Below are positions 6,662-61,080 of a stretch of DNA of 64,000 bases, piece by piece. Under the pieces are notes generated by a model that worked only from the letters and a program-made list of their open reading frames with translations, was not told the DNA's origin and made no database searches. The stretch lies in the sequence record ON568341.1, one strand, 5' to 3'. Every line of letters starts with the position of its first letter. Position 1 is the first letter of the stretch. The DNA comes from Escherichia phage UE-S1. The position numbers and the translations under genes were made by a program.

Positions 6662-6671
6662 TATAACAAAT

Positions 6672-6703
6672 AGGAATCCTAGTATGGGATTCCTATTTTT
6701 ATT
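6672..6703 (+). terminator. intrinsic terminator
   Basis: AGGAATCC / GGATTCCT stem then T-run. Confidence 0.7.
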
Positions 6704-7726: not shown

Positions 7727-7980
7727 CAGTAATGGTGATTATTGGTTTTTTAGTAATATTGTTATTCATTTTTATTTTATCAATGGTTGTCATTGATGAA
7801 CCTAATAGTTCTGTTAGAAATTATGAAGTTCGTTTTTCGGCACAAAACAATAAGTACTATATTGTAAACTGTGTGCATCGTAGTGAGAAAAAGGTAACTG
7901 GTAGGTTTGGATTTACAATTTATTATAAAGATCGAGTAGAAGCTGATATGATTTGTCAGAAACTTAATACAGTAGAATAA
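7723..7980 (+). CDS. small membrane protein
   Basis: Hydrophobic N-terminus IIGFLVILLFIFILSMVVI; bidirectional terminator follows. Confidence 0.45.
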   Translation: MTVMVIIGFLVILLFIFILSMVVIDEPNSSVRNYEVRFSAQNNKYYIVNCVHRSEKKVTGRFGFTIYYKDRVEADMICQKLNTVE

Positions 7981-8007
7981 AAAAAGGAGCCACATGGCTC
8001 CTTTTTT
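7981..8007. terminator. bidirectional intrinsic terminator
   Basis: A5-GGAGCC-ACAT-GGCTCC-T6. Confidence 0.7.
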
Positions 8008-8281
8008 ATGTTTTTACGTAATATGTATAGACAATTATGTAGTTTGATTTTGCGAATCATATACATAGTACAAAAACCTTCAACACTTGCTTCTTCATCT
8101 TTCAATTTAATGAAGAACGTATCATCTCTTAGATTATTAAAATATATAGTTTACAGAAAATAACTTCTCACTATTAATTTTAGCACCTGTAATTTCGATA
8201 CCATCAATAGAAAAAGGTTAATGCAATTATACTTCACGAAGGAAAGTGCATGAAAATTATCATGCACTATATTATTAAAAT

Positions 8282-10183
8282 TTACGCACTGATTGTTACA
8301 GTTGCAGTATCTGTTTTATTACCATCAGCAGTAGCCACTGTAATGACTACAGAACCTTCTTCTAGAGCAGTTACTAATCCCTCATCACTAATAGATACTT
8401 TAGTAGGTTCATCTGCACTATAAGTTACTGATTTGTTAGTTGCGTTAGATGGAAGAACTTCTGGAACTAGTTGAACTGTTTTAGTACCTGATAGTGAAAG
8501 TTCAGTAGTTTTAGGTGTTAAACTAACACTGGATACAGGAACTGGAATATTAACAGTAATAACACCTTGACCTGTTTTACCACTTCCATCAGCAGCAGTT
8601 GCGATAATGTTTGCAGTACCATTAGTTAGTGCAGTTACAATACCAGTACTAGCATCAACTTTTGCTACAGCAGGTTCACTAGAAGACCATGTTACAGATT
8701 TATTAGTTGCGTTAGATGGAAGAACTTCAGCAGCCATTGCTTGAGTTGCTTTAACAGCAGTCAATGTTTTAGTTGCTGGAGTAACATTAATAGATGCTAC
8801 AGGAACTGGAATATTAACAGTTACCACGCAAACTTTAGTAAATCCACCATCAGATGTGGTTGCTGTAATATTTGCAGTACCGTTTGCAACAGCAGTGATT
8901 AACCCAGTTGGACTTACCGTTGCGACACCCTCAGCAGAAGTAGTGTATGAAATATCTTTACGACGAGCGTTATCTGGAATAACAGATGCAGTTAATTGTT
9001 GAGTAGCACCTACCGAAGTTAGGGTTGCGGTCAACGGAGTCATATTAATACCAGTTACTGGGATCGTTACATCAATCACTGATTCAGCAGTTTTAGCACC
9101 ATCATCAGTGGTAACAGTAATAGTTGTAGTACCGTTATCAACCGAAGTTACTAGACCAGTATTACTAACTTTTGCTACGTCTGGATATGAAGAAACATAT
9201 GAAACTGCTTTATTGGATGCAGTTGCAGGAGCAACGGTTGTTTCTAATTGTTTAGTATCACCTAATGTTGAGAATGTATAAGTACTAGGAGTCATAGTGA
9301 CACCAGATACCGGTGTTTTCACAGTGATAGTAGTAGTATCAGTTTTAGCACCATCTTCGGTTGTTGCTGTAATCACCACTGTACCGTTAGCAACACCAGT
9401 TACTAGACCAGAAGTAGGGTTAACGGTTGCTACATCAGGTGTTGCTGAAGACCATGTAACGTTTTTATTAGTTGCATCATCAGGAGATACTGTAGCCGTT
9501 AATTGTTGAGTACCGCCAACGTTAATTGTTGCAGTTTTAGGAGAAACAATAACACCACTAACTGGAGTTGTTACGGTAAATGCACAAACATCGGTGAAAC
9601 CACCATCATGAGTAGTAACTGTTACATTTGCATTACCATTAGCACGGGCAATTGCTAAACCAGTTTCAGCATCAACTTCAACTATTGTTGGAGCAGAGGA
9701 ACTATAACTTACTGTTTTATCATTTGCATAATCTGGATCAATTGTAGCTGATAGCTGTTGTGTACTACCAACTTTAAGTGCTACAACTTTAGGTGAAATA
9801 ATAACACCATCAACTGGAGTAGTATAATCACGTTTAACCACACGACCATTGTTCAATTTAATAATACGACCCATATAAAGAGTAGTATATCCCTTACTAA
9901 TCCCATCATCTACATAAATCATGAATGAATTGTCTTGAACCATATTAATTGCGTCTACTGGTTTAACGGAATTTGGAATGTCGATACCACGGGTATCATA
10001 CCAACACATGGAAACTTTGTAATAGATATCACCATTATCATTTATGAGATCATAAACGTTACTGGAACGTTGACGGTTAATATATAAAGTTTCGGTTAAC
10101 ACCTTACCATCGATTTTAGCGACAGAAACTTTAATACCACCAATACCAAATGGCAATTTACCTTCACTAGATATTGCTTTCAT
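8282..10183 (-). CDS. Ig-like (Big_2-type) repeat protein, possible virion decoration protein
   Basis: Only convincing - strand gene; ~150-aa N-terminal domain then about six ~80-aa repeats (VTVTTHDGGFTDVCAFTVT, ITATTEDGAKTDTTTITV, ITVTTDDGAKTAESVIDV); AAGGAAAG RBS. Confidence 0.75.
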   Translation of the reverse strand: MKAISSEGKLPFGIGGIKVSVAKIDGKVLTETLYINRQRSSNVYDLINDNGDIYYKVSMCWYDTRGIDIPNSVKPVDAINMVQDNSFMIYVDDGISKGYTTLYMGRIIKLNNGRVVKRDYTTPVDGVIISPKVVALKVGSTQQLSATIDPDYANDKTVSYSSSAPTIVEVDAETGLAIARANGNANVTVTTHDGGFTDVCAFTVTTPVSGVIVSPKTATINVGGTQQLTATVSPDDATNKNVTWSSATPDVATVNPTSGLVTGVANGTVVITATTEDGAKTDTTTITVKTPVSGVTMTPSTYTFSTLGDTKQLETTVAPATASNKAVSYVSSYPDVAKVSNTGLVTSVDNGTTTITVTTDDGAKTAESVIDVTIPVTGINMTPLTATLTSVGATQQLTASVIPDNARRKDISYTTSAEGVATVSPTGLITAVANGTANITATTSDGGFTKVCVVTVNIPVPVASINVTPATKTLTAVKATQAMAAEVLPSNATNKSVTWSSSEPAVAKVDASTGIVTALTNGTANIIATAADGSGKTGQGVITVNIPVPVSSVSLTPKTTELSLSGTKTVQLVPEVLPSNATNKSVTYSADEPTKVSISDEGLVTALEEGSVVITVATADGNKTDTATVTISA

Positions 10184-10219
10184 ATACTTTCCTTTATAAA
10201 TTGTATTGTATTGTTATAT

Positions 10220-10227
10220 TATTTATA
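10220..10227 (-). promoter_or_regulatory. T4-late-type TATAAATA box
   Basis: TATAAATA on - strand ~37 nt upstream of the Ig-like gene start. Confidence 0.4.
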
Positions 10228-10251
10228 TTATAACAAAATTATTTTAGTATT

Positions 10252-10276
10252 AAAAAAGGAGTTCTAATGCTCCTTT
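10252..10276 (-). terminator. hairpin with T-run on - strand
   Basis: AGGAG / CTCCT stem, 8-nt loop, A6 on + strand; lies upstream of the - strand gene. Confidence 0.3.
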
Positions 10277-10493
10277 AAAATATAAAGGAACATACTGTGT
10301 AAATCTGGTTTGGTCAGGTTAATCTTTCAGAGAGAAGGAAGTAGTGAATGACATTTTATCATTAAAATCATCTCCTTATCTTTAAAATGGAATTGTAAAC
10401 TGCCTCTTAATATGATACCATAGTTCAAATGGTAAATCAATGAACTTAACAAAAAAAACTTGATACTACAGTCATAATTGTTCAGTTTTGTGC

Positions 10494-10522
10494 TTGACAT
10501 AATTAATCAATTATTGTACTAT
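10494..10522 (+). promoter_or_regulatory. sigma70-like promoter
   Basis: TTGACA - 17 nt - TACTAT in the divergent intergenic region upstream of 10558. Confidence 0.45.
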
Positions 10523-10557
10523 TAATAATGTTCCTTAACTCAAATCCGAGGTAATTA

Positions 10558-11231: not shown

Positions 11232-11492
11232 ATGACAAACATCCAGAATTTGACGTCTATTATTTTTTATGCTACAGTGGTGATGTATACTATTGTACTT
11301 ATTTTAACAGTTTTTATTTACAAAGATTACAAAAAAGGCTTTATTAATAGCTCAACAATGAAGTTCAATTCTAAATTTGAAGCAATTATATTTTATGTTT
11401 TGACAACATCATATTTGTTGTGTATAATGTTATTAGGGTCATTGATTTATATTTTATATACAACATTATTTGCAATTGGAGCTATTTTATGA
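11232..11492 (+). CDS. small membrane protein
   Basis: Strongly hydrophobic segments; stop overlaps next start (ATGA). Confidence 0.45.
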   Translation: MTNIQNLTSIIFYATVVMYTIVLILTVFIYKDYKKGFINSSTMKFNSKFEAIIFYVLTTSYLLCIMLLGSLIYILYTTLFAIGAIL

Positions 11493-12085
11493 CATGTATT
11501 ATTGCACACACTGATGGTGTAACTTCATTTATTGCAGGGGACAAGATGGGGAGTGATGGTTTTACGAAATCAATCCAAACAGAGCCTAAAGTGTTTGAGA
11601 AAGAATTTGTAAAGATTAGTGGTGATGACGGCTTGACTCGTACAAAAGATGTTATGACAATTGGATTCACTACATCATTTCGTATGGGTCAACTGCTAAC
11701 TTATAATTTAAATTTACCAGACCAAAATTCAAATGAGACGTTTCTACAGTATTTAGTACTGAAAGTTATTCCTATTATTCGTCAAATGTTTAAAGACGAA
11801 TGGGGTGCACGTGATACAACACAAGATGTTGGTGGTGGTCAATTTATTATTTTGCACAATCATAAGATTTATGAAATTCAGGAAGATTTTTCAGTTCTCC
11901 AGGCAAAATCAAGAGTTGCATCAGTTGGTAGTGGTACATATCATGCAATTGCAGCGATGCAAGCATACATTGATCTTGAGAAAGAAACTAACGTACAACT
12001 ACATGAACGTATCAAATCCATTTTCAAAATTGTCAGTGATAATGTGTCGAGTGTAAGCGAAGAGTTTGATGTATTAAAATATTAA
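11489..12085 (+). CDS. HslV-like N-terminal-nucleophile (Thr1) peptidase
   Basis: MTCIIAHTDGVTSFIAGDKMGSDG resembles HslV N-terminus ([23 protein letters not shown]) with Thr directly after Met; VASVGSGTYHAIAAMQA resembles HslV IAIGSGGPYAQAAARA; start set at ATG 11489. Confidence 0.6.
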   Translation: MTCIIAHTDGVTSFIAGDKMGSDGFTKSIQTEPKVFEKEFVKISGDDGLTRTKDVMTIGFTTSFRMGQLLTYNLNLPDQNSNETFLQYLVLKVIPIIRQMFKDEWGARDTTQDVGGGQFIILHNHKIYEIQEDFSVLQAKSRVASVGSGTYHAIAAMQAYIDLEKETNVQLHERIKSIFKIVSDNVSSVSEEFDVLKY

Positions 12086-25593: not shown

Positions 25594-28293
25594 ATGATGT
25601 CAAAGAAAATATATGGTGGATTAGATGTCACACATAATGTGACAGTTAATGGAAAAAGAACAATACAAGGTATTAACAAACAAGTGTTTGACGAAAATGG
25701 TAATATGGTGTTGGATACATATTCAAAAAATGAAATGAATGATATCATTGGTATGTTACCAATTTCACATTATGGTTCCATGAACTATCTACCTGCTGGG
25801 GTCGGTGGGGATTTCAATGGTGCATCAGAAAATCAGGCATATCGCAGGAATAAGGTATTATTGGAAAATGATGGAACACTCGTTCTTTTGCGTAGTGGTA
25901 CAAACGGTAGTGTTGAAGGTTTATATTATTCTTATTTGTCTAATGCATTAGCAGTTACTGATATGAGTCGTACAATTAACACAAGTCGTCAATACAAACC
26001 AGGATTCTTCGGTCCAAATCGTGTTGCACTTGGTTTATTTAACACTGATCAAAATATTATAATGGGGAGATATAAAGATATTTCAAACAACACAATTGGT
26101 ACATTCATTTCTATTACTAATGGTACACTTAATGATACATTACACACAGGTTTTTTTGTAAATCAAACTGATATATCACCTGAAGGTGGTGTTGAATATG
26201 CTATGATGGCAGAAGACGGTTCAATATATGTTTTTAATGTAATTAATGAAAATAATAAATTTGAAATAGCCATTGTTAAAGTTGTATTTAATGTGGATAA
26301 TGGTTCTTACACAGCAACCCGCATCACAGGGTGGACTACAAAAACATTTTATAATACTACTTATTCTGGGCAAAATAATATTGTGATAACTAATGCAATG
26401 ACGTCAACTAATATTGCGGATAAGCCTTATGTATTTGTTCCTCCGAATTTGTATGGTATGGGGATTTATATGACATCTATTGATTTATATGTTGCACAAC
26501 AACCAGGAACACAAAATTTTCGTTTCAGGATGAATGGTGACGCTTATTTCGCCATGCCAACATATAGTTCGCGTCCACAACACAATTATAGTTTCACGTT
26601 CGATATGAACTCAAAGCAATGTACATTAGATGCAGGTAACGATATTGGCTCCTTCCAAGCACCGTTGGTTATAACAAATACAGGTTCTGACTTAGTTGCA
26701 TCTGGTAATGTGTTGAATTTAGACCCACTATATGACCACAATGGATATAGAAACATTTATAGTTCATATTTTTATTTAAATTCTGGTGACGTGTTTTGTA
26801 CTGCATGTCCAAACTTAGCAGAGCCACTCGCTATGCAAAAAGCAAAGTTTCCTGTGCAAATAGTATATAACATGTTAAATGTTCGTGCTGTTATATCATC
26901 AAACTTCATAGGTGGTATCGTCCGACCATCATTTGGTTCAGCGGTTGGTTCATATATTAATGGCGTTGAACTACTTCCAGATAACAGTACTAAACAATAT
27001 TCACGAGCATCTGGTTCAGGTGGTTTTAGTCCGTCATATGCAGTTCATAAAAGTACTCCGAATTTTACATTTCAATCGTTATCATTGGGAACAATTCAAG
27101 GTTATGAACCCACCACTGAGCGTAAAAATGTAAGTGAAAATAACAACAATAGAATTTTCATTAGTACTGTGTCTGGGTCAACAGTTACAACTAATGGTGG
27201 TATTTTTATGGTCGGACAACGTTATTCACAATCACTGTCTTTTGATAAAAACTTAAATGGTACAGGTAGTATTAGTGTTTCGCAATCAGTTCTTGATGGG
27301 TTCAGAGACTCTGAATATGCTAAAGTTTTAAGTGATTGGAATTTATCTCCGCAAGCGGGTAAAGATATGACATTGTTTGTACCGCAACAAGCGGATATTC
27401 CAGCATTTGTCATGCTCAGTACAATAACTAATGATTTTAAAAACTACATTAGAATTGCTGAAGTTAATGTAAACACCAGAGTAGGTGAAATCAAATCGAT
27501 AACATTCAAGCGTTTAGTTCTTGAAAATAGATATGGTGATAGTTTCACACCGAATGTTGGCGGTTATATTGCACCATCATCTGTTGGTTTAACAATTTAT
27601 GATGGTGGTTCTTTTTATTTCATTGGCGGTTCAGATCCATTAACACATCCAACAATTGGTAATACAGCAACACACATATTTCGTGCATACGTAAACAAAT
27701 CATCTGCACAATTTGAGAGTTTTATTATTGATGGTATCCATGCGTACTATAATCAAGGCCGTCAATTCACTGCATTACCTGATATTGGATTTGGATATTT
27801 TGATACAATAGACTATGATAACAAAATGATTTTCCGCAAATGTGGAACTACTATTGAAGAATATAATAACTGGAAAGAACAAGGTAATCCAATCAACGTT
27901 GTTTCACAAGATGTTGCACAAGGATTTGTTGTTTATTTTACAGAAGAAACTCCAGTTATTCTTTCTGGTAAATCATTTACCTTACCAGTGTCAAATATTG
28001 ATTTAAGAACAATAAAGCCAAACCCAGCCAATACAACATTTCATGTATATGTTAAGTTAAAACAAGGATTAGTAACTTATCATATAACTACCGATGTTAT
28101 TTCAGAAACTGGGACAATTGCATATAATATATTGTGGATAGGAACAATTAGAACTAACGATATTCAAATTGTATCAATTGATATACAAAAACGTTCACGA
28201 TTGGATATTTTTGGTGCTTCACTTGAAGCGGCAGGGGTTTCGTTCCCAGTCAGCTACGGTCTACCATCACAAACAGGAACCATAAACTGGTAA
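25594..28293 (+). CDS. tail fibre protein (paralogue A, 899 aa)
   Basis: Large Ser/Thr/Asn/Gly-rich protein; paralogous to 28911-31643; conserved C-terminal module ending TGTINW; TATAAATA late-promoter-like box upstream. Confidence 0.65.
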   Translation: MMSKKIYGGLDVTHNVTVNGKRTIQGINKQVFDENGNMVLDTYSKNEMNDIIGMLPISHYGSMNYLPAGVGGDFNGASENQAYRRNKVLLENDGTLVLLRSGTNGSVEGLYYSYLSNALAVTDMSRTINTSRQYKPGFFGPNRVALGLFNTDQNIIMGRYKDISNNTIGTFISITNGTLNDTLHTGFFVNQTDISPEGGVEYAMMAEDGSIYVFNVINENNKFEIAIVKVVFNVDNGSYTATRITGWTTKTFYNTTYSGQNNIVITNAMTSTNIADKPYVFVPPNLYGMGIYMTSIDLYVAQQPGTQNFRFRMNGDAYFAMPTYSSRPQHNYSFTFDMNSKQCTLDAGNDIGSFQAPLVITNTGSDLVASGNVLNLDPLYDHNGYRNIYSSYFYLNSGDVFCTACPNLAEPLAMQKAKFPVQIVYNMLNVRAVISSNFIGGIVRPSFGSAVGSYINGVELLPDNSTKQYSRASGSGGFSPSYAVHKSTPNFTFQSLSLGTIQGYEPTTERKNVSENNNNRIFISTVSGSTVTTNGGIFMVGQRYSQSLSFDKNLNGTGSISVSQSVLDGFRDSEYAKVLSDWNLSPQAGKDMTLFVPQQADIPAFVMLSTITNDFKNYIRIAEVNVNTRVGEIKSITFKRLVLENRYGDSFTPNVGGYIAPSSVGLTIYDGGSFYFIGGSDPLTHPTIGNTATHIFRAYVNKSSAQFESFIIDGIHAYYNQGRQFTALPDIGFGYFDTIDYDNKMIFRKCGTTIEEYNNWKEQGNPINVVSQDVAQGFVVYFTEETPVILSGKSFTLPVSNIDLRTIKPNPANTTFHVYVKLKQGLVTYHITTDVISETGTIAYNILWIGTIRTNDIQIVSIDIQKRSRLDIFGASLEAAGVSFPVSYGLPSQTGTINW

Positions 28294-28910: not shown

Positions 28911-31643
28911 ATGTCATCAAAACGAATTATAGGAAGTGCTGAGATCCTTGGAAACTTAGCGATTGGTGGAAAATATGCAATGCGTACATTTAACGGAACT
29001 TCCCCCGATGCAAACACTGGAATAGTTAATTATCCAATATATAATAGGTCGGAAGTACAACGTATTTTAGACATGCTACCAATATCACGTATAGGAGAAA
29101 TGGATTATCTTCCATTAAACGTGAATGGCTCATATGAAGGGGCAACATCAAATTCAGATATATATCGCGTTCAACCGACTATCATTGAAGATGATGGAAC
29201 TGGTGTGGTATTACGTGCAGGTACTAATGGTAGTGAAAAAGGTTTCTATTATTCTTTCATACGAGATTTAAGAAATGTTTCTTCTTTAACTCAAGATATG
29301 GTCATTTCAACCACAAGTAAATATAAACCATCCATTCTCAGTGCTGGGGAAAGTGTTACTAGATTTATTGGTTCTAATGGGTATGAGCTTTTAGTTTCAT
29401 ATACATCGAACTTAAATTATATTTTTACGTTAACAAATGGTACATTCAATGAAACATCCCATATCCATGCTAAATTGGTTGGTACACAATTTAATACGGA
29501 TAAACCATTATATGCACATATAGTTGGGGCAAATATATTCATTTGGTGTAAAGATACAACAGTAACTAATGGTGGCATGGCATATACATTATACACCGTA
29601 TCAAAAAGTGATGTGATTAATGGCACGATGACATCTTTTGCTAAAGTTACAGGATTTTCTGGACAAACAGTTAGAAATACAAGCTATAGTTCATCAAACA
29701 ACATTCGTGTATTTGATAGTTATTTTTCCACAAATTCTGACTCGGACTCTCTATTTGTTATTAACAGTCCCGTGAATAGTGTAGAGTATATTGATTATAA
29801 TGACTATAATATCCAAGCGAATGCCAGTTCTGATAACTCTAGAATACGAGTTACTTTATATATAACACCACGTTTCAGTACACCATTGATTGTATCTCCT
29901 GTATTCGCAACAGGTATAAGTTTTGTTTATACTATTAGCTCAAAATCTATGTCATTGGACGGTAGTGCCAGAGCACCAGTTACAGTATCGTATACTAATA
30001 ATAAGTTTGTGGTTTCTAACCAGTTTGAAATTTCAATGAGTAATTTTACTGGTTCAAAGAACAGTTTATCTTCATTAGGTGATTGTGGCTCAATATGTCA
30101 AACAACAGATGGTCTAGTTTTCACTTCAAAATCCAGATGGGTTTCTGATGAGACATATGGCTTACAACTATATAAAGTTCAAGGTACACCATACGATAGT
30201 TGGGTTGCTAGTTCCCGTAAAGCAAGTGATTTAATAAACGTAAATGTTAAACCAACATACGGTTCGGCTGTAGGTGAAAACTTACTTGGTGTTAGATTCA
30301 TTGATACCAGAAAGATACTTCTTGCATGTTCAAGTACTAGCAATGGTGTAACTTATGGTTATGATAGTACTGTGTATTCTCAAATTGGGGAAAATCCAAC
30401 ACATACATATAATAGTGTTACTACTGGAAAATCTATAGAAGGGTTTGCACCTGAATCAGAACGTAAATATCTAGGTAATAGTTATGATTACAGTGCTATG
30501 ATTTCGTTAATCGCAGAAGACGGTACAGTAAGGTCTTATGGTTCATCATTTATTGAAGGAATTACCAAAGATGCAACTGGGTTACTAGATCCAGTTACAA
30601 TGACATTCTCTGGAAAATATACAATATCTGATGCTACTTTAATGGAGTTAAAACAATCTATCATTACTAGCTCTAAAATTTCTGGTACTAGTACTTCTAG
30701 AATATGCTTTTATTATGTACCTGACACTACATTCTCAAGATCTATGGCAGTCGTTTGTACATACAGCCCAACTAATAACCAAGGGTATGCTATTTTTGCT
30801 GAAGTTGATGTTGTACTTAGTGGTTCTGAAATCACAAGTGCATCAGTATATTCAACTAGATACGAAGTTGAAGATAATGTTTCTGGTATACAAAGCAATG
30901 CAATATTAAAGCGTTGCACGGGAATGACAGTTGCGAAATACACAGGGTTCAATTATCTTGGAATTGATACAATTCACCAGTTCACTGTACCTGGCGATGT
31001 TCATCAAAAAATGATGATAGCTAAAGTTAAAAATGGAGATATTAGTAGTAATCGTTATTTCACAACTTATCATGTTAATGCTAATAATAGCTTTGCTTTC
31101 CAACATGGTGCAATTCCCAATGTTGGGTTTGGGTATTATAACTTCAACATTTCAGATTTACAGACAAAAGCAGTTTTTTCTGTATTTGGTACAACTGAAG
31201 CACAAATGGATGGTTTGATTGCGGGGACTGGAGCAGTGCTGAATAATTATGTCATTGTGTCACAGGACGTTGCACAGGGTTTTAACGTATACTTCACTCG
31301 TGATGTACCAGTGTTTTTGGGTGGAATGTTTGACAGACTACCAGTTCAAAGTATAGATTTGAAAACTATTAAAACTAATCCTGCTAACAGTACTTTTTAT
31401 ATTTACATTCAAATGGATCGCAACACTGGAAAAGCGGCATACGTTATTAGTACTACCCTTCTCGATGAGACATTGACAAATGTTTATATTGGTAATATCA
31501 TCACTGGAAGTACAAGTATCACGTCGATTGATACTGAAAAGGTAACTCGCTTCTTGACCTACCGACCTAGTACCACAAAACGTGGGTCCGCAATACCTGC
31601 CAGTACTGGTGTACCATCTGGGCCTGGCTCCCGTTGGAAATAA
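28911..31643 (+). CDS. tail fibre protein (paralogue B, 910 aa)
   Basis: Shares N-terminal (MLPIS.IGEM.YLP) and C-terminal (SQDVAQGF..TIK.NPAN) blocks with 25594-28293. Confidence 0.65.
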   Translation: MSSKRIIGSAEILGNLAIGGKYAMRTFNGTSPDANTGIVNYPIYNRSEVQRILDMLPISRIGEMDYLPLNVNGSYEGATSNSDIYRVQPTIIEDDGTGVVLRAGTNGSEKGFYYSFIRDLRNVSSLTQDMVISTTSKYKPSILSAGESVTRFIGSNGYELLVSYTSNLNYIFTLTNGTFNETSHIHAKLVGTQFNTDKPLYAHIVGANIFIWCKDTTVTNGGMAYTLYTVSKSDVINGTMTSFAKVTGFSGQTVRNTSYSSSNNIRVFDSYFSTNSDSDSLFVINSPVNSVEYIDYNDYNIQANASSDNSRIRVTLYITPRFSTPLIVSPVFATGISFVYTISSKSMSLDGSARAPVTVSYTNNKFVVSNQFEISMSNFTGSKNSLSSLGDCGSICQTTDGLVFTSKSRWVSDETYGLQLYKVQGTPYDSWVASSRKASDLINVNVKPTYGSAVGENLLGVRFIDTRKILLACSSTSNGVTYGYDSTVYSQIGENPTHTYNSVTTGKSIEGFAPESERKYLGNSYDYSAMISLIAEDGTVRSYGSSFIEGITKDATGLLDPVTMTFSGKYTISDATLMELKQSIITSSKISGTSTSRICFYYVPDTTFSRSMAVVCTYSPTNNQGYAIFAEVDVVLSGSEITSASVYSTRYEVEDNVSGIQSNAILKRCTGMTVAKYTGFNYLGIDTIHQFTVPGDVHQKMMIAKVKNGDISSNRYFTTYHVNANNSFAFQHGAIPNVGFGYYNFNISDLQTKAVFSVFGTTEAQMDGLIAGTGAVLNNYVIVSQDVAQGFNVYFTRDVPVFLGGMFDRLPVQSIDLKTIKTNPANSTFYIYIQMDRNTGKAAYVISTTLLDETLTNVYIGNIITGSTSITSIDTEKVTRFLTYRPSTTKRGSAIPASTGVPSGPGSRWK

Positions 31644-49173: not shown

Positions 49174-49422
49174 ATGAAAGTTAAAATTTATGGTCGCACG
49201 ACTGGTTGTAAATTTTGCGATACTGCAAAAGCTGTATGTGAGCAAAATAAATTTGACATGGAATTTGTAGATATTGTTACTGAAGGTATTGATGGTGCAA
49301 AGCTATCAGAAATTTGTGGTGAGCCAGTACGTCAGGTTCCTCAAATTTTTGTAAATGACATTTATGTACCTGGGGGTTGTACTGGATTTATTGAAGGACT
49401 TAAAGAAGGTCGTTGGAAATAA
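49174..49422 (+). CDS. nrdC: glutaredoxin/thioredoxin (NrdC-like)
   Basis: KIYGRTTGCKFCDTAK CxxC active site; overall resemblance to T4 NrdC (KVYG..C.YCDNAK .. PQ.F). Confidence 0.65.
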   Translation: MKVKIYGRTTGCKFCDTAKAVCEQNKFDMEFVDIVTEGIDGAKLSEICGEPVRQVPQIFVNDIYVPGGCTGFIEGLKEGRWK

Positions 49423-49664
49423 TGGATATTGAAAAAGTATCATCTCGTGCAAAACAACTAGCTGACACGTTGGGAGTAGAGTTCAAAATTCCTGATATCA
49501 CCATCGCTAAAGAAAAAGCACAGAATAAAATTAATAAGATGAAAGAATATCTATCTAAACAGGAGCAATATGATTCTGCTGTAGAATTTATTATGAAATC
49601 ATTTAGTAAAGATGATATTTTGGCATTCATCAAATATGTGAAGGTTTCTGGTAACCCTAAATAA
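49422..49664 (+). CDS. hypothetical protein
   Basis: Start overlaps upstream stop (TAATG). Confidence 0.45.
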   Translation: MDIEKVSSRAKQLADTLGVEFKIPDITIAKEKAQNKINKMKEYLSKQEQYDSAVEFIMKSFSKDDILAFIKYVKVSGNPK

Positions 49665-49694
49665 CAATGAAGAACAAAAGTTCTTCTTAACAAT

Positions 49695-52284: not shown

Positions 52285-54279
52285 ATGAATAATGAAGAAT
52301 TGAAAAAACTTTTGTTGTCAAAACATATTAATTCATGGGTACATTTATACAAAGGGGACTCTCATGTGAGAGATCTCCTTTCTGTTTTTGGAATAGAACC
52401 AAAAACTGATTTCGAAATATATAAAATTCTATATATGTTCATGAATGATATAACAACAGTTCCAACTGCATATTGTGGAAAAAAAGCAAGATACAAAAAT
52501 TTTCAAAAAGGATTTTATAAATTTTGTGATGATTATGTAATTAATAAGAAAAATACGTGTAATGTATGCCATGAGATGTATTATAAAAATCGAACTAATA
52601 AAACAAAATCAACATTAATGAATATGTATGGTGTATCTAATGTATCCCAGATCCAAGAAGTAAAACAAAAGAAAGAAAAAACTAACATTGAACGTTATGG
52701 TGTCTCTACTAATTTACAGACAACAGAATCTAAAGAGAAAATCAAACAAACTAATATAGAGCGATATGGATGTGAATATCCAAATCAAAACCCTGAAATA
52801 TTCAATAAAGTAAAAGAAACAAATTTAAAAAAGTATGGTGTTGAATTCCAAAGTAAAAGAAATGAAGTAAAAGAGAAAGCCAAAAATACAAATATATTAA
52901 GATACGGAACTGAGTATTCTTTATCATCACCGACTATTCGCGAAAAAATCAATAAAACAAATCTTGAACGATATGGTGGAAACCCACTATCAAATAAAAT
53001 TATCCAAGATAAAATAAAAAACACCAACACATTGAAGTATAATTCATTTTATCCAATGAGCAATATGAGTATTCAGGAAAAAGTTCATAATACCAATGTG
53101 GAACGATATGGTGTAAAATACCCAGCCCAAAATAATTCTATCATTGAAAAAATGAAAGAAACCACAAAAAATAGATATGGTTCAGAACACTACTCACAAA
53201 CAGATGAGTATAAAGATAAAATATCACTTGCCCGTCTAGACGAAAGATATAATATAATTGTTGCAAATATTGATAAAAACTATATTCCATTATTTGAAAA
53301 TACCGATCTGATTATGAAAGTTAATACAGACGAATACCCATTTTGGTGTGAGTATTGTGATGATTTGTTTTATAGTAAGTATAAAAATCATAAAGTGAAA
53401 TGTAAGTGTCAGAAAAATAATGGTCATTCCTTGAAAGAGAAAGATTTAGTTGATTATATAAAATCATTAATACCAAATACCGAAATCATAGAAAATGACC
53501 GTTCAGTACTGAAACCTAAAGAGTTGGATGTGTATATCCCTGACCGAAATCTAGCTATTGAATTTAATGGTGTGTATTGGCATAATGATGAAAATGTCAA
53601 TTCTACTAAACACCAAGATAAGGTATTGGATTGTTTAAAACATGGGGTGAATCTTATTCACATTTATGAAGATGAATGGGATAACCCATTAACAAATAAA
53701 ATAATCAAGGAACGTTTAAAGAATAAACTTCTAGTGTCAAATAGAATTTATGCTAGAAAATGTACTGTTAGAAATATAGACAAACAAGTAAGTAATATGT
53801 TTACTAAATCACACCATATTCAAGGTGTTGCACAAGCAAGTATTCACATTGGACTTTACTATGGAAGTGAGTTGGTTGCAGTTATGACCTTTGGTAAATC
53901 AAGGTTTGATAAAAACTATGAATATGAATTAATCAGATACTGTTCATCCGGTACAGTTGTTGGTGGTGCATCAAAATTACTAAAATATTTTGAAACAGTA
54001 TATAATCCACAATCATTATTGACATATGCGGATATGGATTGGAGTAGTGGTGATCTTTATACAGTTCTAGGCTTTGAGTTTGATAGTTATACAGAACCAG
54101 GATATTTTTATTATGACCCACAAACACATGAGAGGATTTCACGTCAGAAATGTCAAAAACATAAATTGGTCAAGAAAGGTTATGATATTAACTTAACCGA
54201 GAGACAAATTTGCTGTGATGTGTTGGGATATTATAAGATTTACAACTCTGGTAATATAAAATACACAAAAAAATATTAA
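52285..54279 (+). CDS. free-standing homing-endonuclease-like protein with tandem peptide repeats and a Vsr/PD-(D/E)xK-like nuclease core
   Basis: Eight or nine tandem ~23-29-aa repeats with core TN(I/L/V)ERYG; nuclease-like block ELDVYIPDRNLAIEFNGVYWH; extra C-terminal domain (GGASKLL). Confidence 0.6.
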   Translation: MNNEELKKLLLSKHINSWVHLYKGDSHVRDLLSVFGIEPKTDFEIYKILYMFMNDITTVPTAYCGKKARYKNFQKGFYKFCDDYVINKKNTCNVCHEMYYKNRTNKTKSTLMNMYGVSNVSQIQEVKQKKEKTNIERYGVSTNLQTTESKEKIKQTNIERYGCEYPNQNPEIFNKVKETNLKKYGVEFQSKRNEVKEKAKNTNILRYGTEYSLSSPTIREKINKTNLERYGGNPLSNKIIQDKIKNTNTLKYNSFYPMSNMSIQEKVHNTNVERYGVKYPAQNNSIIEKMKETTKNRYGSEHYSQTDEYKDKISLARLDERYNIIVANIDKNYIPLFENTDLIMKVNTDEYPFWCEYCDDLFYSKYKNHKVKCKCQKNNGHSLKEKDLVDYIKSLIPNTEIIENDRSVLKPKELDVYIPDRNLAIEFNGVYWHNDENVNSTKHQDKVLDCLKHGVNLIHIYEDEWDNPLTNKIIKERLKNKLLVSNRIYARKCTVRNIDKQVSNMFTKSHHIQGVAQASIHIGLYYGSELVAVMTFGKSRFDKNYEYELIRYCSSGTVVGGASKLLKYFETVYNPQSLLTYADMDWSSGDLYTVLGFEFDSYTEPGYFYYDPQTHERISRQKCQKHKLVKKGYDINLTERQICCDVLGYYKIYNSGNIKYTKKY

Positions 54280-55268: not shown

Positions 55269-55365
55269 AATATAAACAATAAAGACTTGTCATTTAGATC
55301 CTTCAATAAATAAGATTATACGAATATATAATTCGAACAACCAATTATTTTTGGAGGATTTTAAT

Positions 55366-58029
55366 ATGGCAGGAGATCTACTCTCACCTGGCGTGTCTAT
55401 CTCAGTAACTGATAACAGTATGAGTACTGCTGCTGCTCCAGGCACAGTACCACTATTTGTAATTGCTACTGCTGAAGACAAACTTGTTCCTGGTAGCAAT
55501 GCAATTGCTGTAGGAACTACTAAAGCAAATGCTGGAAAACTACAGCTTTTGACATCACAAAAAAGCTCACTTGATACCTATGGTACACCAATTTTCCAAA
55601 CGAATAACGGTTCTGTTGTTCAGGGGGATGAACTAAACGAATATGGTCTACATGCAGTATATTCTTATCTAGGGATTACTAATCGTGCATATGTAATTCG
55701 TGCTGACATTGATCTAGCACAATTAGCACCAAGTGCACAAGCCCCAACTGGTCCAGTTTCAAATGGCACTTTGTGGTTTGATACTGCACAATCACAAGTT
55801 GAGGCATATGTAGCTAAGAAAGACAGCCCTAGTAGTTTTTATGATTGGCAGCTTAAACCAGTCACTATTGTAAGTGCAGAAGAAGTTGAGGATGTAAGTT
55901 TAGTTGGTTTGAATGTTGATGATTTGGTTCTACGTTATAAACCAAGTAATGGTCAGATGCTAATGTATAAACGTTCCGCTTCTGGTTTGGTGCAAATGGA
56001 AACTTACCTATCCCCTATCAACAAAGTTCCAGTAGGCTCCACTGTGGAGAAAGGAAACATTTGGATTCGTGATGGTTATACCCAAAATGGGTCAAACTAT
56101 TTTGGCACTCGTTTTGTTATTAAACGTTATGCATCTTTAACTCAAGTTTGGAATATTGTGCCAGCATTTACTGGTAATTCATTCCAAGAAATTGAAGCGA
56201 AAAGTGGTGTTCTAAATAATAGTTATATCGCATCTCGCTTTGATGATGATAGCAAAAGTTTCTCTTTTTATATTCAAAGTGCAAAACTATCAACAATTAG
56301 TGCTCCTGCTTTGCCATTAGGTGAAACCATTATTGAACAAGCAGGTGATGATAGTTATATGATTTTCACTTATTTGAACAAATCTGTTAAAGTTCTAGCA
56401 GTACCTAATGGTGGTGTTATCAATACACAAACTATCATCAATAATCTAAATTCTAATGCTGAAGTAATTAACGATGGTTTCAAATTCAAACGTGAAACTA
56501 ATGGAGGTTTGGTTATCACCAATACTAAAGGGTATAGTTTCAAAATTACCCAAAGTGGTGATGATATTTTTGCAGCAGATGAACTACAAAAACTAACTGT
56601 AAACAGTAACAACTACTCCCAAATCAATCTTAAAAACTTCCGTGTTAGTTATGAAGTACCACGTAATATCGCAAAAGATGGTACATTATGGTATAATTTT
56701 GGAAACTCTGATAATTTAAATGTTACTTTGTATGTAGCTGATGTAGCAAACGACAAATGGGAGCTTGTTCAAGACGAAAACAAATATGTACAAGTCGATG
56801 AGCCAGCAGCAGATCGTACAATTTGGGTATGCCCTCTTTCACAAGGTATCGATGGATACGAATTCTATCGTAATGTCGATGGTGAATGGGTTAAACTTGA
56901 CAATACAGATCAAAGCACATTAAATGGTATGGTTTTCCATGACTTTAATACTCCATCAAAAGTTCCCGCTGCTGCATTGTATCAAAATGGTATGTTGGCA
57001 GTAGACTTAGGCAATACTGAAGGTGTTGTTAAGAAAATGGTTAATGGAAAATGGGAAGTTGTTAGTGGTGTAAGTATTGATGGTGCTGGTTTGTTTGGTC
57101 GTGCTGCACAACGTCAACTTGTCGTCGAAGCACTGGCAGCAGTTATTGTTGGTAATGATGAAATTCGTTCCGAATTTATTGATTTCAATCTAATTTGTGT
57201 ACCTGGTTATGTTGAAACTCTAGCTGAATGTGTAACTTTAAATACAGATCGTAAAGAAACTGCATTTATCGTAACTGACGTTCCTGCACGATTGGACCCA
57301 ACTGGTAATGGTAGTGCTGTTCAGAAATGGGCTACTAATGCTAATAATGCACCAAGTAATGGCCCAGTTGGTAGAACAACTGCATATGATTATGCAGCCC
57401 AGTATATGGGGTGGTGTCTAAGTACAAACGTAGATGGTATGGAAGTTGCTGTACCAGGAAGCACTATTGCAATGCGTACTTATGCATATAGTGATAGCGT
57501 TAGTTATGTGTGGTATCCACCTGCTGGTACAACTCGTGGCGTTGTGACTAATGCTGCAAGTACTGGTTTCATTAATAGTGAAGGTGAATATCAACCAGTT
57601 GTATACAATCAAGGCCAACGTGATGTTATGTATACAAACAACATTAACCCAATTGCAATGCGTCCGAATCGTGGCTTACTTGTGTATGGAGATAAAACGC
57701 TATCTGCTAATCAAACATCAGCACTAAGCCGCGTTAACGTCGCACGTTTAGTTGTTTATATTCGTCGTCAACTTGAAATTATTTCTGAACCATTCCTATT
57801 CCGTTTGAATACCCCAAGTACTCGTCAGGAATTCAGTGGTGTAGTTAATAGTTTTTTGGCAGAAATTGTTCAACAACAAGGTCTATATAATTTCGCAGTA
57901 GTTTGTGACGAAAGTAACAACACTTCTGAACGTATTGACCGTAATGAACTTTGGATGGATATTGCAATCCAACCAACCAAGTCTATTAACTTCATATACG
58001 TACCAATTCGTATTGAAAAGACTCAATAA
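55366..58029 (+). CDS. tail sheath protein (gp18-like)
   Basis: N-terminal LLSPGV and C-terminal RVNVARL .. VVCDESNNTSERIDRNELW .. IQPTKSINFIYV match conserved myovirus sheath termini; GGAGG RBS; terminator follows. Confidence 0.85.
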   Translation: MAGDLLSPGVSISVTDNSMSTAAAPGTVPLFVIATAEDKLVPGSNAIAVGTTKANAGKLQLLTSQKSSLDTYGTPIFQTNNGSVVQGDELNEYGLHAVYSYLGITNRAYVIRADIDLAQLAPSAQAPTGPVSNGTLWFDTAQSQVEAYVAKKDSPSSFYDWQLKPVTIVSAEEVEDVSLVGLNVDDLVLRYKPSNGQMLMYKRSASGLVQMETYLSPINKVPVGSTVEKGNIWIRDGYTQNGSNYFGTRFVIKRYASLTQVWNIVPAFTGNSFQEIEAKSGVLNNSYIASRFDDDSKSFSFYIQSAKLSTISAPALPLGETIIEQAGDDSYMIFTYLNKSVKVLAVPNGGVINTQTIINNLNSNAEVINDGFKFKRETNGGLVITNTKGYSFKITQSGDDIFAADELQKLTVNSNNYSQINLKNFRVSYEVPRNIAKDGTLWYNFGNSDNLNVTLYVADVANDKWELVQDENKYVQVDEPAADRTIWVCPLSQGIDGYEFYRNVDGEWVKLDNTDQSTLNGMVFHDFNTPSKVPAAALYQNGMLAVDLGNTEGVVKKMVNGKWEVVSGVSIDGAGLFGRAAQRQLVVEALAAVIVGNDEIRSEFIDFNLICVPGYVETLAECVTLNTDRKETAFIVTDVPARLDPTGNGSAVQKWATNANNAPSNGPVGRTTAYDYAAQYMGWCLSTNVDGMEVAVPGSTIAMRTYAYSDSVSYVWYPPAGTTRGVVTNAASTGFINSEGEYQPVVYNQGQRDVMYTNNINPIAMRPNRGLLVYGDKTLSANQTSALSRVNVARLVVYIRRQLEIISEPFLFRLNTPSTRQEFSGVVNSFLAEIVQQQGLYNFAVVCDESNNTSERIDRNELWMDIAIQPTKSINFIYVPIRIEKTQ

Positions 58030-58418: not shown

Positions 58419-59105
58419 ATGGCTACAATGCTTGATCGATATGGCGTGCCGCTGGCAGGTGGTGGTCGTATCTCTATGAAACAACCGAAGGCAAAATATA
58501 AATTTCGTGTCATTTTCTTTGGTTTCGGTACTAATGATGATGGTAATATGATTACACTAGACACTAATACCGTAGGTGCAGTATCGGTATCACATGAAAA
58601 CGTTACTGTTCATAGTTATAACAGTTCTGCACACTATAAAGGTAAGTACACATGGGATACTATTGAAATTGCTTTCCGTGATTCAGTTGGTAATGCTTCT
58701 GCTAAAGCACTATATAACCAAATGCGTAAAGAATTTAACTATTATAGTCAAGAATCACGTATGACCGATTCTCAATTCAAGTTCGAAATGTGGATTCAAG
58801 AACTTGATGGCTCTAATAGTGAAAATACGTCAAACCTGTTTGAAGGTACATTAAGTACTTGGGTATGTCAAGGTTGCTTTATTGAATCTAGTAACTTTGG
58901 TGATTGGGACTATTCTTCAAGTGATGCACAAGTCATTTCTATGACAGTACAACCTGATGGGTGTGCCAAGTTGGGTCCAAACGGTGAAGCATTTGGTGAT
59001 GAAGTTAGTGGTTTCGGTAATCCATCAACAGCTACTTCTATTTCTGGTGCACAAACTAATATTAGTAGCACTACACTACCAGATAGTAATTTCTATGAAA
59101 AATAA
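58419..59105 (+). CDS. tail tube-like protein (paralogue 1)
   Basis: Follows sheath; N-terminal KYGVPL..GGR.SM.QPKAKYKFRVI shared with next gene; GGAGAA RBS; terminator follows. Confidence 0.6.
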   Translation: MATMLDRYGVPLAGGGRISMKQPKAKYKFRVIFFGFGTNDDGNMITLDTNTVGAVSVSHENVTVHSYNSSAHYKGKYTWDTIEIAFRDSVGNASAKALYNQMRKEFNYYSQESRMTDSQFKFEMWIQELDGSNSENTSNLFEGTLSTWVCQGCFIESSNFGDWDYSSSDAQVISMTVQPDGCAKLGPNGEAFGDEVSGFGNPSTATSISGAQTNISSTTLPDSNFYEK

Positions 59106-59124
59106 TTTCATTTAAACTTAATAT

Positions 59125-59153
59125 AGCCTCGAATCATTTCGAGGCTTTTTTTA
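59125..59153 (+). terminator. intrinsic terminator after first tube gene
   Basis: AGCCTCGAA / TTCGAGGCT stem then T7. Confidence 0.8.
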
Positions 59154-59197
59154 TGCTAAATAAAGTATAATACCTTATAAAATAAAAAGAGGTTGCT

Positions 59198-59974
59198 ATG
59201 GCAAATAACATGATTAATAAATATGGGGTTCCTTTACCATCAGGGCGTAATAGATCTATGCTACAACCAAAAGCAAAATACAAGTTTCGTGTTATTGTAT
59301 ATAATTTCGGTACTGAAATAAATGAACGAGATCACATTGCACTTGATGTGGATAAAATAGATAGACCTACTGTCACATTTAGTACACATAAACTGTATCA
59401 ATTTACTACAAATACATCATATATTGGTAGTTATGATTGGGAACCAATCACATTATCGATCCGTGATTCGGTTGGTAACGCTTCTGCAAAAGCATTATCT
59501 AGACAGTTACAAAAACAACTTGACTTTCAGCGTAGAATAACATCAAGAAGAGTTCATGACTATGGTTCATATAAATTTGGATTAGTTATACAAATGCTTA
59601 GTGGACGTAACTCTGATGATACATTAGATAATTTGGGTAGAGATACATTAGTTGATGCATCCACCGCAGCAACAAATAATACTGGATTGGTTAATGCTGT
59701 CGATCAATTTATAGGTGGTTCGTCTTATAATAGTGCTGGTGTCATGGAATACTTTGTTTTAACGGGATGTGTTATACAAAACATAACATATGACTCTCTT
59801 GATTATAGTTCAAGTTCACCAGTTGAAATGGTAGTAACAATAAAACCAGATAACTGTATACAATTTGATAACATTGAAGAAATGTATAGTACCAGAATAA
59901 ATTCTCTTTTACCTGAAAATGTCAATCAAGGATTAGATATCATTGATCGTGTTTTTGGTAATGTTGGATTTTAA
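59198..59974 (+). CDS. tail tube-like protein (paralogue 2)
   Basis: N-terminus KYGVPLPSGRNRSMLQPKAKYKFRVI and RDSVGNASAKAL shared with 58419-59105. Confidence 0.6.
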   Translation: MANNMINKYGVPLPSGRNRSMLQPKAKYKFRVIVYNFGTEINERDHIALDVDKIDRPTVTFSTHKLYQFTTNTSYIGSYDWEPITLSIRDSVGNASAKALSRQLQKQLDFQRRITSRRVHDYGSYKFGLVIQMLSGRNSDDTLDNLGRDTLVDASTAATNNTGLVNAVDQFIGGSSYNSAGVMEYFVLTGCVIQNITYDSLDYSSSSPVEMVVTIKPDNCIQFDNIEEMYSTRINSLLPENVNQGLDIIDRVFGNVGF

Positions 59975-59985
59975 GGAGATGATGG

Positions 59986-61080
59986 ATGAGTGATTTTTTT
60001 GATTCATTTGTCAGTACTGGCACAAGTATTGTAAATGGGGTTGTTGATAATATAGAAATAGTAAAAGACCCTGCATTCAAAAACTATAATGCTGCTCAAC
60101 GTGTTTTTGGAACAGCAGGTGAAATGGGTTTTTCATTTTATAATTTACCTAAATTTAAAAATAGTTTTATAATTGAATTTGTGTTAACTCCTTTTGCAAA
60201 AAACTTTATTAAAACTCAATTACCAGACACACATACTGGTTTTGACGTTAATAATGTATCATGTTTTGTTAAAGATGTTACATTACCAAGCTTTTCATTT
60301 AATATTGAAACAGTCAATCAATATAATAAAAAACGATTAGTTACTGGAGACATAGTTTATAAACCAAGTAATGTGGTTTTTTATGATACTGTTGATGGTG
60401 CTGGGTACTTATTATTGGATGCATATAGAAAGTTTTATTATGGTGATTTCTTTGATAAAAATCCCCAATCGTACCGTAATGATGTTCTAAGTACACCTGA
60501 TAACTTTAATGGTTTGGGGGGTAACTGGGGTCGTTCCGTTATGAACAACGGTAATTATGATAACCAATACTTTTTTAAATCAATTAATATATATGAAATT
60601 GATAATGAAACATACACAGTACATAATATGATAAACGTATTCATCGAAGATGTACAGTTAGAAACTAAATCTATGGAAAGTGAAGCAGAACCGTCTGTTA
60701 TTTCTTTAACTATGAGATACGAAGCATGTAACAACTTTGGACCTGATGGATATTTGAGTATTAGTGTACCTTCAATGGAGATTGCACATTTGATTACAAA
60801 CACAGAAGGACTTGGTGTTAGTGGTTTCTTCAAATATTTTGGTGAATTGGATGATAAAACAACAGGAATAGAGACAGTTGGCAAAATTATCCGAGCAGGT
60901 ACGTCAGTTAGTGATATAATCAGTAGTGTTGATGATATATTGCGTGGGGACACTACACCTGACACTATTAGAAACATCGGGGCGGCTGTAACCAGAGGTT
61001 CTAATGCTATTGGATTTGGTAGTGTTGTGTCTGAAGCAAGTTCTAAATTTGGACTTGGTAATATACTAGGAGATTTCTAA
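59986..61080 (+). CDS. tail tube-related structural protein (paralogue 3, 364 aa)
   Basis: Shares blocks (SFIIEFVL; ISLTMRYEACNNFGPDG vs ISMTVQPDGCAKLGPNG) with the two upstream tube-like genes. Confidence 0.5.
   Translation: MSDFFDSFVSTGTSIVNGVVDNIEIVKDPAFKNYNAAQRVFGTAGEMGFSFYNLPKFKNSFIIEFVLTPFAKNFIKTQLPDTHTGFDVNNVSCFVKDVTLPSFSFNIETVNQYNKKRLVTGDIVYKPSNVVFYDTVDGAGYLLLDAYRKFYYGDFFDKNPQSYRNDVLSTPDNFNGLGGNWGRSVMNNGNYDNQYFFKSINIYEIDNETYTVHNMINVFIEDVQLETKSMESEAEPSVISLTMRYEACNNFGPDGYLSISVPSMEIAHLITNTEGLGVSGFFKYFGELDDKTTGIETVGKIIRAGTSVSDIISSVDDILRGDTTPDTIRNIGAAVTRGSNAIGFGSVVSEASSKFGLGNILGDF

Follow-up and report, generated by a model that had tools for sequence, protein, structure and literature searches.

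The 64,000-nucleotide (nt) stretch of Escherichia phage UE-S1 analysed here (ON568341.1; the whole stretch is referred to as the window) carries on its minus strand an intact gene for a 633-amino-acid (aa) protein, in which an N-terminal domain (N-domain) is followed by six Big_2 immunoglobulin (Ig)-like units. We consider it likely that the product of this Ig-array gene is a late-expressed decoration protein or adhesin, of the non-essential type, on the virion surface of a Rak2-like jumbo coliphage. This reading draws on a T4-late-type promoter box in front of the gene, on the presence of homologues in purified virions of phages phAPEC6 and CBB, and on the conservation of the gene and its position among Rak2-like phages; the N-domain as the particle-binding module has good support. 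Judged by its sequence, the window comes from a Rak2-like jumbo coliphage of the genus Asteriusvirus, with ~89-94% nt identity to ph0011 and ~89% to 121Q and phAPEC6 over conserved stretches. The genome is classed as new at the species level, and the Ig-array gene as a six-unit allele or species-level variant.

The Ig-array gene and its product

The gene, its domains and its start signals were located as follows.

8282..10183, minus strand: complete coding sequence, 633 aa plus stop, ATG start, N-domain and then six Big_2 units (open reading frame (ORF) list, Pfam)
9818..10183, minus strand: N-domain, aa 1-122, family-defining putative virion-anchoring module, no Pfam family
8285..9817, minus strand: six-unit Big_2 array, boundaries set by conserved P-V-x-G/PVPV linkers
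10187..10195, minus strand: ribosome-binding site AAAGGAAAG, GGA ~7 nt before the ATG, read from the sequence
10220..10227, minus strand: T4-late-type promoter box TATAAATA, 36 nt upstream of the ATG at 10183

A first-pass annotation, made from the letters of the window, had described a minus-strand gene for a protein of exactly this length, with about six Big_2-like repeats behind an N-terminal domain, and had proposed a profile search against Big_2 and Hoc. The Big_2 half of that search was positive, with Pfam Big_2 (PF02368) matching the protein in six stretches (E=6.5e-92; score 302 bits, cutoff 22.8), so that the protein belongs to this family; homology to Hoc was not found in a sequence search of the PDB. 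The six units span aa 123-206, 207-290, 291-374, 375-458, 459-546 and 547-633 (9566-9817, 9314-9565, 9062-9313, 8810-9061, 8546-8809 and 8285-8545, respectively, on the minus strand). They are 34-54% identical to each other in pairwise comparison and are therefore old repeats, not the outcome of recent tandem duplication. The protein also matched PHROG 215, 'structural protein with Ig domain' (E=1e-137), while its first ~122 aa, which gave no Pfam match at all, matched PHROG 33171, 'virion structural protein' (E=6e-15). At the nucleotide level the gene is 93.5% identical to its homologue in ph0011 (890 aa) and 82% identical to that in A4 (722 aa).

A late-type promoter box in front of the gene

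The box at 10220-10227 lies where the first-pass annotation had placed it (at ~37 nt from the ATG by its count), and its occurrence is no product of AT-richness, because both TATAAATA and ATAAATA are strongly depleted in the window: TATAAATA was observed 3 times against 13 expected (4.3-fold depleted) and ATAAATA 13 times against 46.5 expected (3.6-fold depleted). Seven of the 13 ATAAATA copies precede a same-strand ORF start by 19-50 nt, and the genes behind such positioned copies include the sheath gene (55351), a tube gene (58419) and two genes of the 3' structural block (62193 and 62733); in front of a second tube gene (59198), the related CTAAATA stands at a distance of 42 nt. Sites of the [AC]TAAATA or TATAAATA type on the plus strand lie, for example, at 55306, 58377, 59156, 62156, 62683 and 25555, and the positioned ATAAATA copies provide a usable late-promoter map of this phage. 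The site at 25555 is the sole other perfect TATAAATA in position, 32 nt upstream of an 899-aa ORF (25594-28293, plus strand) whose product shares 83% identity with gp323c of phAPEC6, which mass spectrometry (MS) identified as a virion protein. The Ig-array gene has the layout of a T4-type late unit, that is, a TATAAATA -10 element without a -35 element shortly upstream of the gene.

The box is identical and in the same place in ph0011 and in front of A4_464, and ATAAATA is found 32-52 nt upstream of the ATG in ph0011, A4_464, CBB, Yen9-04 g094c, BF and both EJP2 copies. For the CBB orthologue, a late-type promoter, Porf_112 (ATAAATATTAATAT), was predicted by the authors of that genome among the late promoters of structural genes (PMC5259590). 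Porf_112, together with the same motif at the same distance before sheath and tube genes, supports the late-type promoter that the first-pass annotation had proposed. A gp55-like sigma factor has been reported in CBB (CBB_244; PMC5259590) and a phage sigma factor in phAPEC6 (PMC7247149). No transcriptome of a Rak2-like coliphage is reported in the phAPEC6, CBB, RaK2, Sharanji or 121Q papers; the Sharanji, RaK2 and PA5oct papers yielded no usable transcriptomic or promoter data, and the late-promoter terms looked for in the PA5oct RNA-seq paper were not present.

Homologues in purified virions

In phAPEC6, the gp347 product is no more than the N-domain, and electrospray ionization tandem MS (ESI-MS/MS) of purified virions detected it with 8 peptides and 75.2% coverage (PMC7247149, Table 1). 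CBB_112, composed of the N-domain and one Big_2 unit, was likewise found in virions by MS, with 4 peptides and 24.3% coverage (PMC5259590, Table 4). Since a protein made of the N-domain only is incorporated into virions, the N-domain is best read as the docking module and the Big_2 rod as displayed cargo. Both homologues support the description of the product, in the first-pass annotation, as a virion-associated accessory protein with Ig repeats.

A conserved locus with a variable array

An opposite-strand gene with the same N-domain adjoins the dCMP deaminase (cd) block in five Rak2-like lineages examined, namely Asteriusvirus, Alcyoneusvirus, Mimasvirus, one Eneladusvirus (fHe-Yen9-04) and Salmonella phage Munch, and the Ig-array gene of the window occupies the same position. 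The genes found in this cd-adjacent slot in other phages were the following.

ph0011, opposite strand: WAE77065, 890 aa
A4, opposite strand: A4_464, 722 aa, with two flanking paralogues besides
PBECO4, G17 and phAPEC6, opposite strand: 125 aa, N-domain only
RaK2, opposite strand: gp496, 212 aa
CBB, opposite strand: CBB_112, 218 aa
Yersinia phage fHe-Yen9-04, opposite strand: g095c/g094c, two tandem copies
Salmonella phage Munch, opposite strand: CPT_Munch_133, 224 aa
EJP2, opposite strand: EJP02_118 beside cd, and EJP02_120 one gene further

Phage 121Q has a single N-domain gene, gp471. In Serratia phage BF, the second Eneladusvirus examined, the N-domain copy that was fetched lies elsewhere, with cd not nearby.

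The number of Big_2 units per orthologue is 0 in PBECO4 and phAPEC6, 1 in RaK2 and CBB, 6 in the window, 7 in A4 and 9 in ph0011. Relative to the window array, ph0011 has three additional units and A4 has one, the differences being whole-domain insertions or deletions, and two units stand in opposite order in A4 and ph0011. These differences show that array length evolves by gain, loss and shuffling of whole domains.

The first-pass annotation had the gene 'acquired as a cassette'. We rejected this view because the cd-adjacent slot is conserved across Rak2-like phages and because the GC content at third codon positions (GC3) bears no foreign signature. The array (8285-9817) has a GC3 of 0.12, while other genes, the sheath gene among them, range over 0.17-0.28; its third-position AT bias is extreme. 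The overall GC content of the array, 0.40 against ~0.30, is the highest in the region, but the excess comes from codon positions 1 and 2 only; given the low GC3, it reflects amino-acid composition, not foreign origin. On these comparisons, the Ig-array gene is ancestral to the Rak2-like group.

The N-domain family and its predicted fold

A word-indexed protein search with the N-domain returned only 2 near-identical fragments, and the family was recovered by an exhaustive HMMER (phmmer) search, which gave 58 representative clusters with lengths of 102-1859 aa. The N-domain starts at residue 1-13 in 54 of the 58; two of the others are N-truncated and two are probably false hits. Past the N-domain the C-termini are variable, from nothing at all up to proteins of 1859 aa, with Big_2 in 27 of 53 family members scanned and Big_1 or Invasin_D3 in others. 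The window protein has the ~120-aa domain of the Rak2-like family (PHROG 33171 / 10468, no Pfam) at its extreme N-terminus. In the alignment, invariant or near-invariant residues are I4, P11, G16, A22, Q38-R39-S40, D45-L46 and F87.

Structure prediction with AlphaFold2 from the single sequence of aa 1-206 was unusable (predicted local distance difference test (pLDDT) 32.6), and a model of aa 1-126 based on a multiple sequence alignment was used instead. This model, built from 42 aligned sequences, is confident, with a pLDDT of 88.9 and a predicted template modelling (TM) score of 0.82, and it consists of short beta-strands and one helix. In BFVD it matched the Yen9-04 orthologue and other family members at TM ~0.8 and CBB at 0.63; more distant matches were uncharacterised proteins of Agrobacterium phage Atu_ph07 and of uncultured phages. 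Because the matches are Rak2-like orthologues and uncharacterised proteins, the fold gives no functional lead. A PDB sequence search with the N-domain gave only matches at E>0.5 and spurious ones to engineered OspA repeats, none individually significant. Residues 1-10 have the lowest confidence in the folded part of the model (mean pLDDT 69), and the N-terminal arm (I4, P11, G16) is among the most conserved parts of the domain; the combination is compatible with a partner-binding segment.

Flanking signals and decayed paralogues

Both flanks of the Ig-array gene hold signals and relics of further N-domain genes.

7980..8007, both strands: bidirectional intrinsic terminator, common to the convergent plus-strand cd operon and the minus-strand unit (folding)
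8013..8217, minus strand: pseudogene, remains of a second N-domain paralogue, A4_463-type (intact at 124 aa in A4) (tblastn, blastn, hidden Markov model (HMM))
8245..8268, minus strand: conserved hairpin 14 nt past the stop codon, without a U-tract (folding free energy (dG) -13.3 kcal/mol, z=-6.0)
10252..10276, minus strand: weak hairpin resembling a terminator, with a U-run, immediately before the late promoter (dG -7.3 kcal/mol, z=-2.9)
10289..10363, minus strand: ~75 bp relic of a giant N-domain paralogue deleted from the window genome (tblastn with A4_465)
10494..10522, plus strand: sigma70-like promoter TTGACA-17-TACTAT for the divergent protease-like gene at 10558 (consensus scan only)

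The terminator, which the first-pass annotation had also recognized, is a perfect palindrome, AAAAAAGGAGCC-ACAT-GGCTCCTTTTTT, with an A-run and a T-run, and with a U-run on either strand. Each strand folds at a dG of -17 to -19 kcal/mol (z about -6). The homologous site in G17 is an annotated terminator (ARNOLD).

The 275 bp between the stop codon of the Ig-array gene and this shared terminator were missed in the earlier reading: they are filled by the decayed A4_463-type paralogue and are not plain 3' untranslated region (UTR). In tblastn, 8135-8013 matched aa 82-122 of A4_463 with 83% identity, and 8217-8140 matched aa 12-37 with 62%; blastn revealed a 134-bp internal deletion relative to A4, and an HMM of the N-domain matched 7959-8150 (E=7e-11). 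The same wreck is present in ph0011.

A hairpin after the stop codon had also been proposed. It is real, but lies at 8245-8268 rather than at 8239-8261, and it is not a canonical terminator because the U-tract is missing. A hairpin of this type stands in A4 between A4_464 and the intact downstream paralogue A4_463, and is also present in ph0011. Because the A4 counterpart separates the Ig gene from an intact paralogue, the hairpin is intercistronic and not the end of the unit, and it is probably an element of intercistronic stability, processing or attenuation rather than a terminator.

On the upstream side, A4_465 matched the relic at 10289-10363 with 68% identity over 25 aa, and the window is 419 bp shorter than A4 at this point. 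A4_465 and A4_466 match the N-terminal part of a 1859-aa family member (P0023). The giant paralogue is intact, at 1859 aa and with the N-domain at residue 1, in a metagenomic contig (L012, from SRR23924980; 6993-19639). Behind it in this contig come four ORFs (874, 713, 84 and 680 aa), all but the 84-aa one encoding beta-repeat proteins, and immediately after them the Ig-array orthologue, making an opposite-strand island of >13 kb in the same cd slot. The hairpin at 10252-10276 is conserved in A4 with a compensatory stem (GGAGTC-TTCG-GACTCC) and is probably the old terminator of the upstream giant paralogue, an insulator, or both. Taken together, the alignments show the cd-adjacent locus to be a birth-and-death hotspot of paralogues with a common anchor.

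The divergent promoter region that had been described next to the unit corresponds to the sigma70-like element at 10494-10522, identified as a consensus match only. It ends 36 nt before the ATG at 10558, and A4 and ph0011 share this region at 90-93% identity.

Proposed role, particle location and alternative explanations

In the scheme that we favour, transcription by host RNA polymerase, carrying a gp55-like late sigma factor of the phage, would begin at the TATAAATA box (10220-10227), and the transcript would cross the 633-aa coding sequence, the conserved hairpin and the dead downstream paralogue before stopping at the bidirectional terminator at 7980-8007. The ~122-aa N-domain would bind the particle, and the six Big_2 domains would project from it as a flexible rod of ~20-25 nm, giving weak reversible adhesion to cell-surface glycans, mucus or biofilm matrix. 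Work by Fraser from 2006 on phage Ig-like domains is said to form, with T4 Hoc, the established knowledge behind this adhesion analogy, and the RaK2 authors made the same suggestion for gp496.

As to where on the particle the protein would sit, the T=28 capsids of 121Q (PMC5646251) and phAPEC6 (PMC7247149) have decoration densities without an assigned protein, between capsomers and at hexon centres, and both phages have fibres on head and tail. We put the chances of a capsid-surface location, for example at such a hexon-centre or inter-capsomer density, at about even; the tail surface is a weaker candidate, and any other site weaker still. The phiKp24 capsid was set aside as a structural guide, being of a different lineage and built from the major capsid protein (MCP) alone.

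Several observations weigh against the decoration or adhesin reading. The homologues verified by MS are only 27-38% identical to the N-domain of the window protein, and none of them is multi-Ig. The coverage of gp347 is the highest of 62 proteins (MCP 74.9%, sheath 68.0%), but coverage does not equal stoichiometry (PMC7247149). ATAAATA is absent upstream of the orthologue in PBECO4 and G17. No PDB chain showed a fold match between the N-domain and a known capsid- or tail-binding module, so that the anchor role is argued from architecture and virion presence and not from fold. An adhesive role of the Big_2 rod is probable by analogy, which is its sole basis.

The alternative closest to this reading keeps the protein on the virion and moves it to the tail, with the N-domain on sheath, collar or baseplate periphery and the Ig rod as part of the 'hairy' tail whiskers. 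Fibres and 'decoration proteins' do occur at defined tail levels in 121Q, phAPEC6 and CBB (PMC5646251, PMC7247149, PMC5259590), and relatives are labelled 'major tail protein' in databases, but that label stems only from Big_2 matching the lambda gpV C-terminal domain (CBB supplement, PMC5259590), and phAPEC6, 121Q and PBECO4 have hairy tails, yet one N-domain gene each, without an array. The MCP-like coverage of gp347, which is not a stoichiometry, fits a high-copy, capsid-scale site somewhat better, and nothing here is decisive; we regard the tail-surface alternative as possible, on the unlikely side. Taken literally, the label would turn the product into a major tail tube protein like lambda gpV or T5 pb6, extended by Ig units at its C-terminus. 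This is what the RefSeq names of the RaK2, K64-1 and CBB orthologues imply, and PHROG matches to 'major tail protein' families and PDB sequence matches to T5 pb6 and other tube proteins point the same way. The PDB tube-protein matches are, however, confined to the Ig units, the N-domain has no detectable similarity to any solved tail-tube protein, and three true tube-family genes lie beside the sheath gene in the window. We rejected the database label on these grounds and consider the tube reading effectively refuted.

A role as primary receptor-binding protein, or as a component of the tail-fibre network that sets host range, would account for the differences in array length between phages isolated on different E. 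coli strains and for the tail fibre label of some PHROG matches. PBECO4-type phages nevertheless infect E. coli with an Ig-less orthologue. The Ig-array gene also lies far from baseplate and fibre genes, the 633-aa protein ends in an ordinary Big_2 unit and has no trimerisation, beta-helix, depolymerase or distinct C-terminal tip domain, and its paralogues decay freely, which suggests dispensability; such a role is improbable. Still less probable is that the protein is no virion component here, acting instead as a secreted or cell-surface adhesin or decoy during infection behind a coincidental promoter-like box. Although the virion evidence comes from homologues rather than from the 633-aa protein itself, and the gene lies amid metabolic or early-type genes, a signal peptide is not evident in the 633-aa sequence, orthologues are present in virions of two genera, and ATAAATA is strongly depleted and otherwise found in front of structural genes.

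Returning to the decoration or adhesin reading, a bolder form of it may be put forward tentatively. The N-domain might be an uncharacterised, universal Rak2-like virion-docking module that sits at a fixed particle site and carries interchangeable cargo. Its modelled fold resembles tandem small SH3-like barrels behind a conserved N-terminal arm, with structural relatives in Atu_ph07; a conceivable site is the hexon-centre 'fibre-anchoring' density or the inter-capsomer density of the T=28 121Q/phAPEC6 capsid; and the cargo could range from nothing through 1-9 Big_2 units to 'hairs' of >1800 aa. If this were true, the cd-adjacent slot would be a dedicated, fast-evolving surface-display island, part of the 'hairy' morphology would be explained, and the domain would be a natural display scaffold.

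Neighbouring genes and other features of the window

The genes near the Ig-array gene on the plus strand encode dCMP deaminase (cd), ClpP-like and HslV-like proteases, Sir2, Nudix, PhoH and NrdD. The earlier description of the unit as embedded among plus-strand early genes is locally true, but the plus strand also carries late structural genes, the sheath gene at 55351-58029 and tube genes at 58419-61080. The Ig-array gene had further been called the only convincing minus-strand gene, and for ORFs of at least 90 aa this holds: of eight other minus-strand ORFs in this size range, seven lie inside or largely overlap longer plus-strand ORFs. The eighth, at 49400-49693, was rejected as a second candidate; the gap there holds three small plus-strand ORFs, one of them glutaredoxin-like. 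No transfer RNAs were found in the window.

Several further features were noted. The 899-aa ORF at 25594-28293 counts as a further late structural gene within the 'early' neighbourhood. It and an ORF at 28911-31643, both on the plus strand amid nucleotide-metabolism genes, encode paralogous ~900-aa proteins (PHROG 3573, function unknown). The tube genes are three tail-tube-family genes in a row (228, 258 and 364 aa, plus strand, 3' of the sheath gene), the first two of which are paralogues (PHROG 4542), each with an [AC]TAAATA box ~42 nt upstream. Two genes before the tail sheath gene lies a 664-aa HNH or homing-endonuclease-like ORF (PHROG 3339/559; 52285-54279, plus strand). A perfect sigma70 consensus, TTGACA-17-TATAAT (12/12), occurs at 11400-11428 on the plus strand, at the start of the HslV-like peptidase ORF (11420-12085). 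A second palindromic, bidirectional terminator-like hairpin with a 12-14 bp stem is located at 6668-6698, between plus-strand genes upstream of the cd block.

Significance

The Ig-array gene is not the first of its kind, because orthologues exist in GenBank, some of them annotated as structural, and a late promoter has been predicted for the one in CBB. Nor will it surprise phage specialists, to whom Ig-like accessory proteins behind late promoters are common. Modestly new are the view that the N-domain serves a family displaying 0 to >15 domains as its constant anchor, the cd-slot hotspot, the two pseudogene relics and the correction of the 'major tail protein' label. For annotation, the N-domain family owes this widespread label to an artefact, the Big_2 match to lambda gpV, and the flanks of the Ig-array gene are decayed paralogues rather than UTR or promoter DNA. 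The N-domain is a compact module and probably all that a protein needs to enter jumbo-phage virions; across relatives it carries 0 to >15 beta-sandwich domains. The decoration densities seen on 121Q and phAPEC6 capsids gain a concrete candidate in this family, and phage display on very large capsids could use the domain as a scaffold.

Comparison with known systems

The closest counterparts are the Rak2-like orthologues (ph0011, A4_464, CBB_112, RaK2 gp496, Yen9-04 g095c/g094c and Munch_133), which have the N-domain and Big_2 C-termini as in the window, share the opposite-strand slot beside cd and, in most cases, have the late-type box. PBECO4 gp098, 121Q gp471 and phAPEC6 gp347 are Ig-less forms of the same gene. 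The window gene differs from these relatives in its 6 Ig units, against 0, 1, 7 or 9, and in the decay of both flanking paralogues.

Among better-known proteins, T5 pb10 has an N-terminal capsid-binding domain and a C-terminal Ig-like domain and is present as one copy at each hexamer centre. The window protein resembles it as an accessory, late virion-surface protein with an N-terminal anchor and C-terminal Ig display. It differs in having six Big_2 units where pb10 has one Ig. No match of its N-domain to any PDB chain was detected by sequence or fold; binding of the N-domain at hexamer centres is putative. Lambda gpV and T5 pb6 have a C-terminal Big_2 family domain in common with the window protein, but its N-terminal part shows no detectable tube fold, and the real tube genes are elsewhere in the window.

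T4 Hoc, a dispensable decoration protein thought to be weakly adhesive, consists of three Ig-like domains and a C-terminal capsid-binding domain. Shared with the window protein are Ig-like domains held off the particle, T4-type late promoter logic and the character of a dispensable-type decoration with a presumed weakly adhesive role. The 'Hoc-like' label of the first-pass annotation is apt as a functional analogy; as a statement of homology it fails, since the anchor is C-terminal in Hoc and N-terminal here, the Ig subtype here is Big_2, and no T4 or RB49 Hoc chain was among the PDB sequence matches of the 633-aa protein at E<=1e-3. The single match to a 'Hoc-like protein ORF90' (7x30) covers Ig units only (aa 209-378). 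With its polarity reversed and no sequence match, the window protein stands outside the T4 Hoc family; by analogy, it would belong functionally with the Hoc- and pb10-type Ig-bearing accessory virion proteins.

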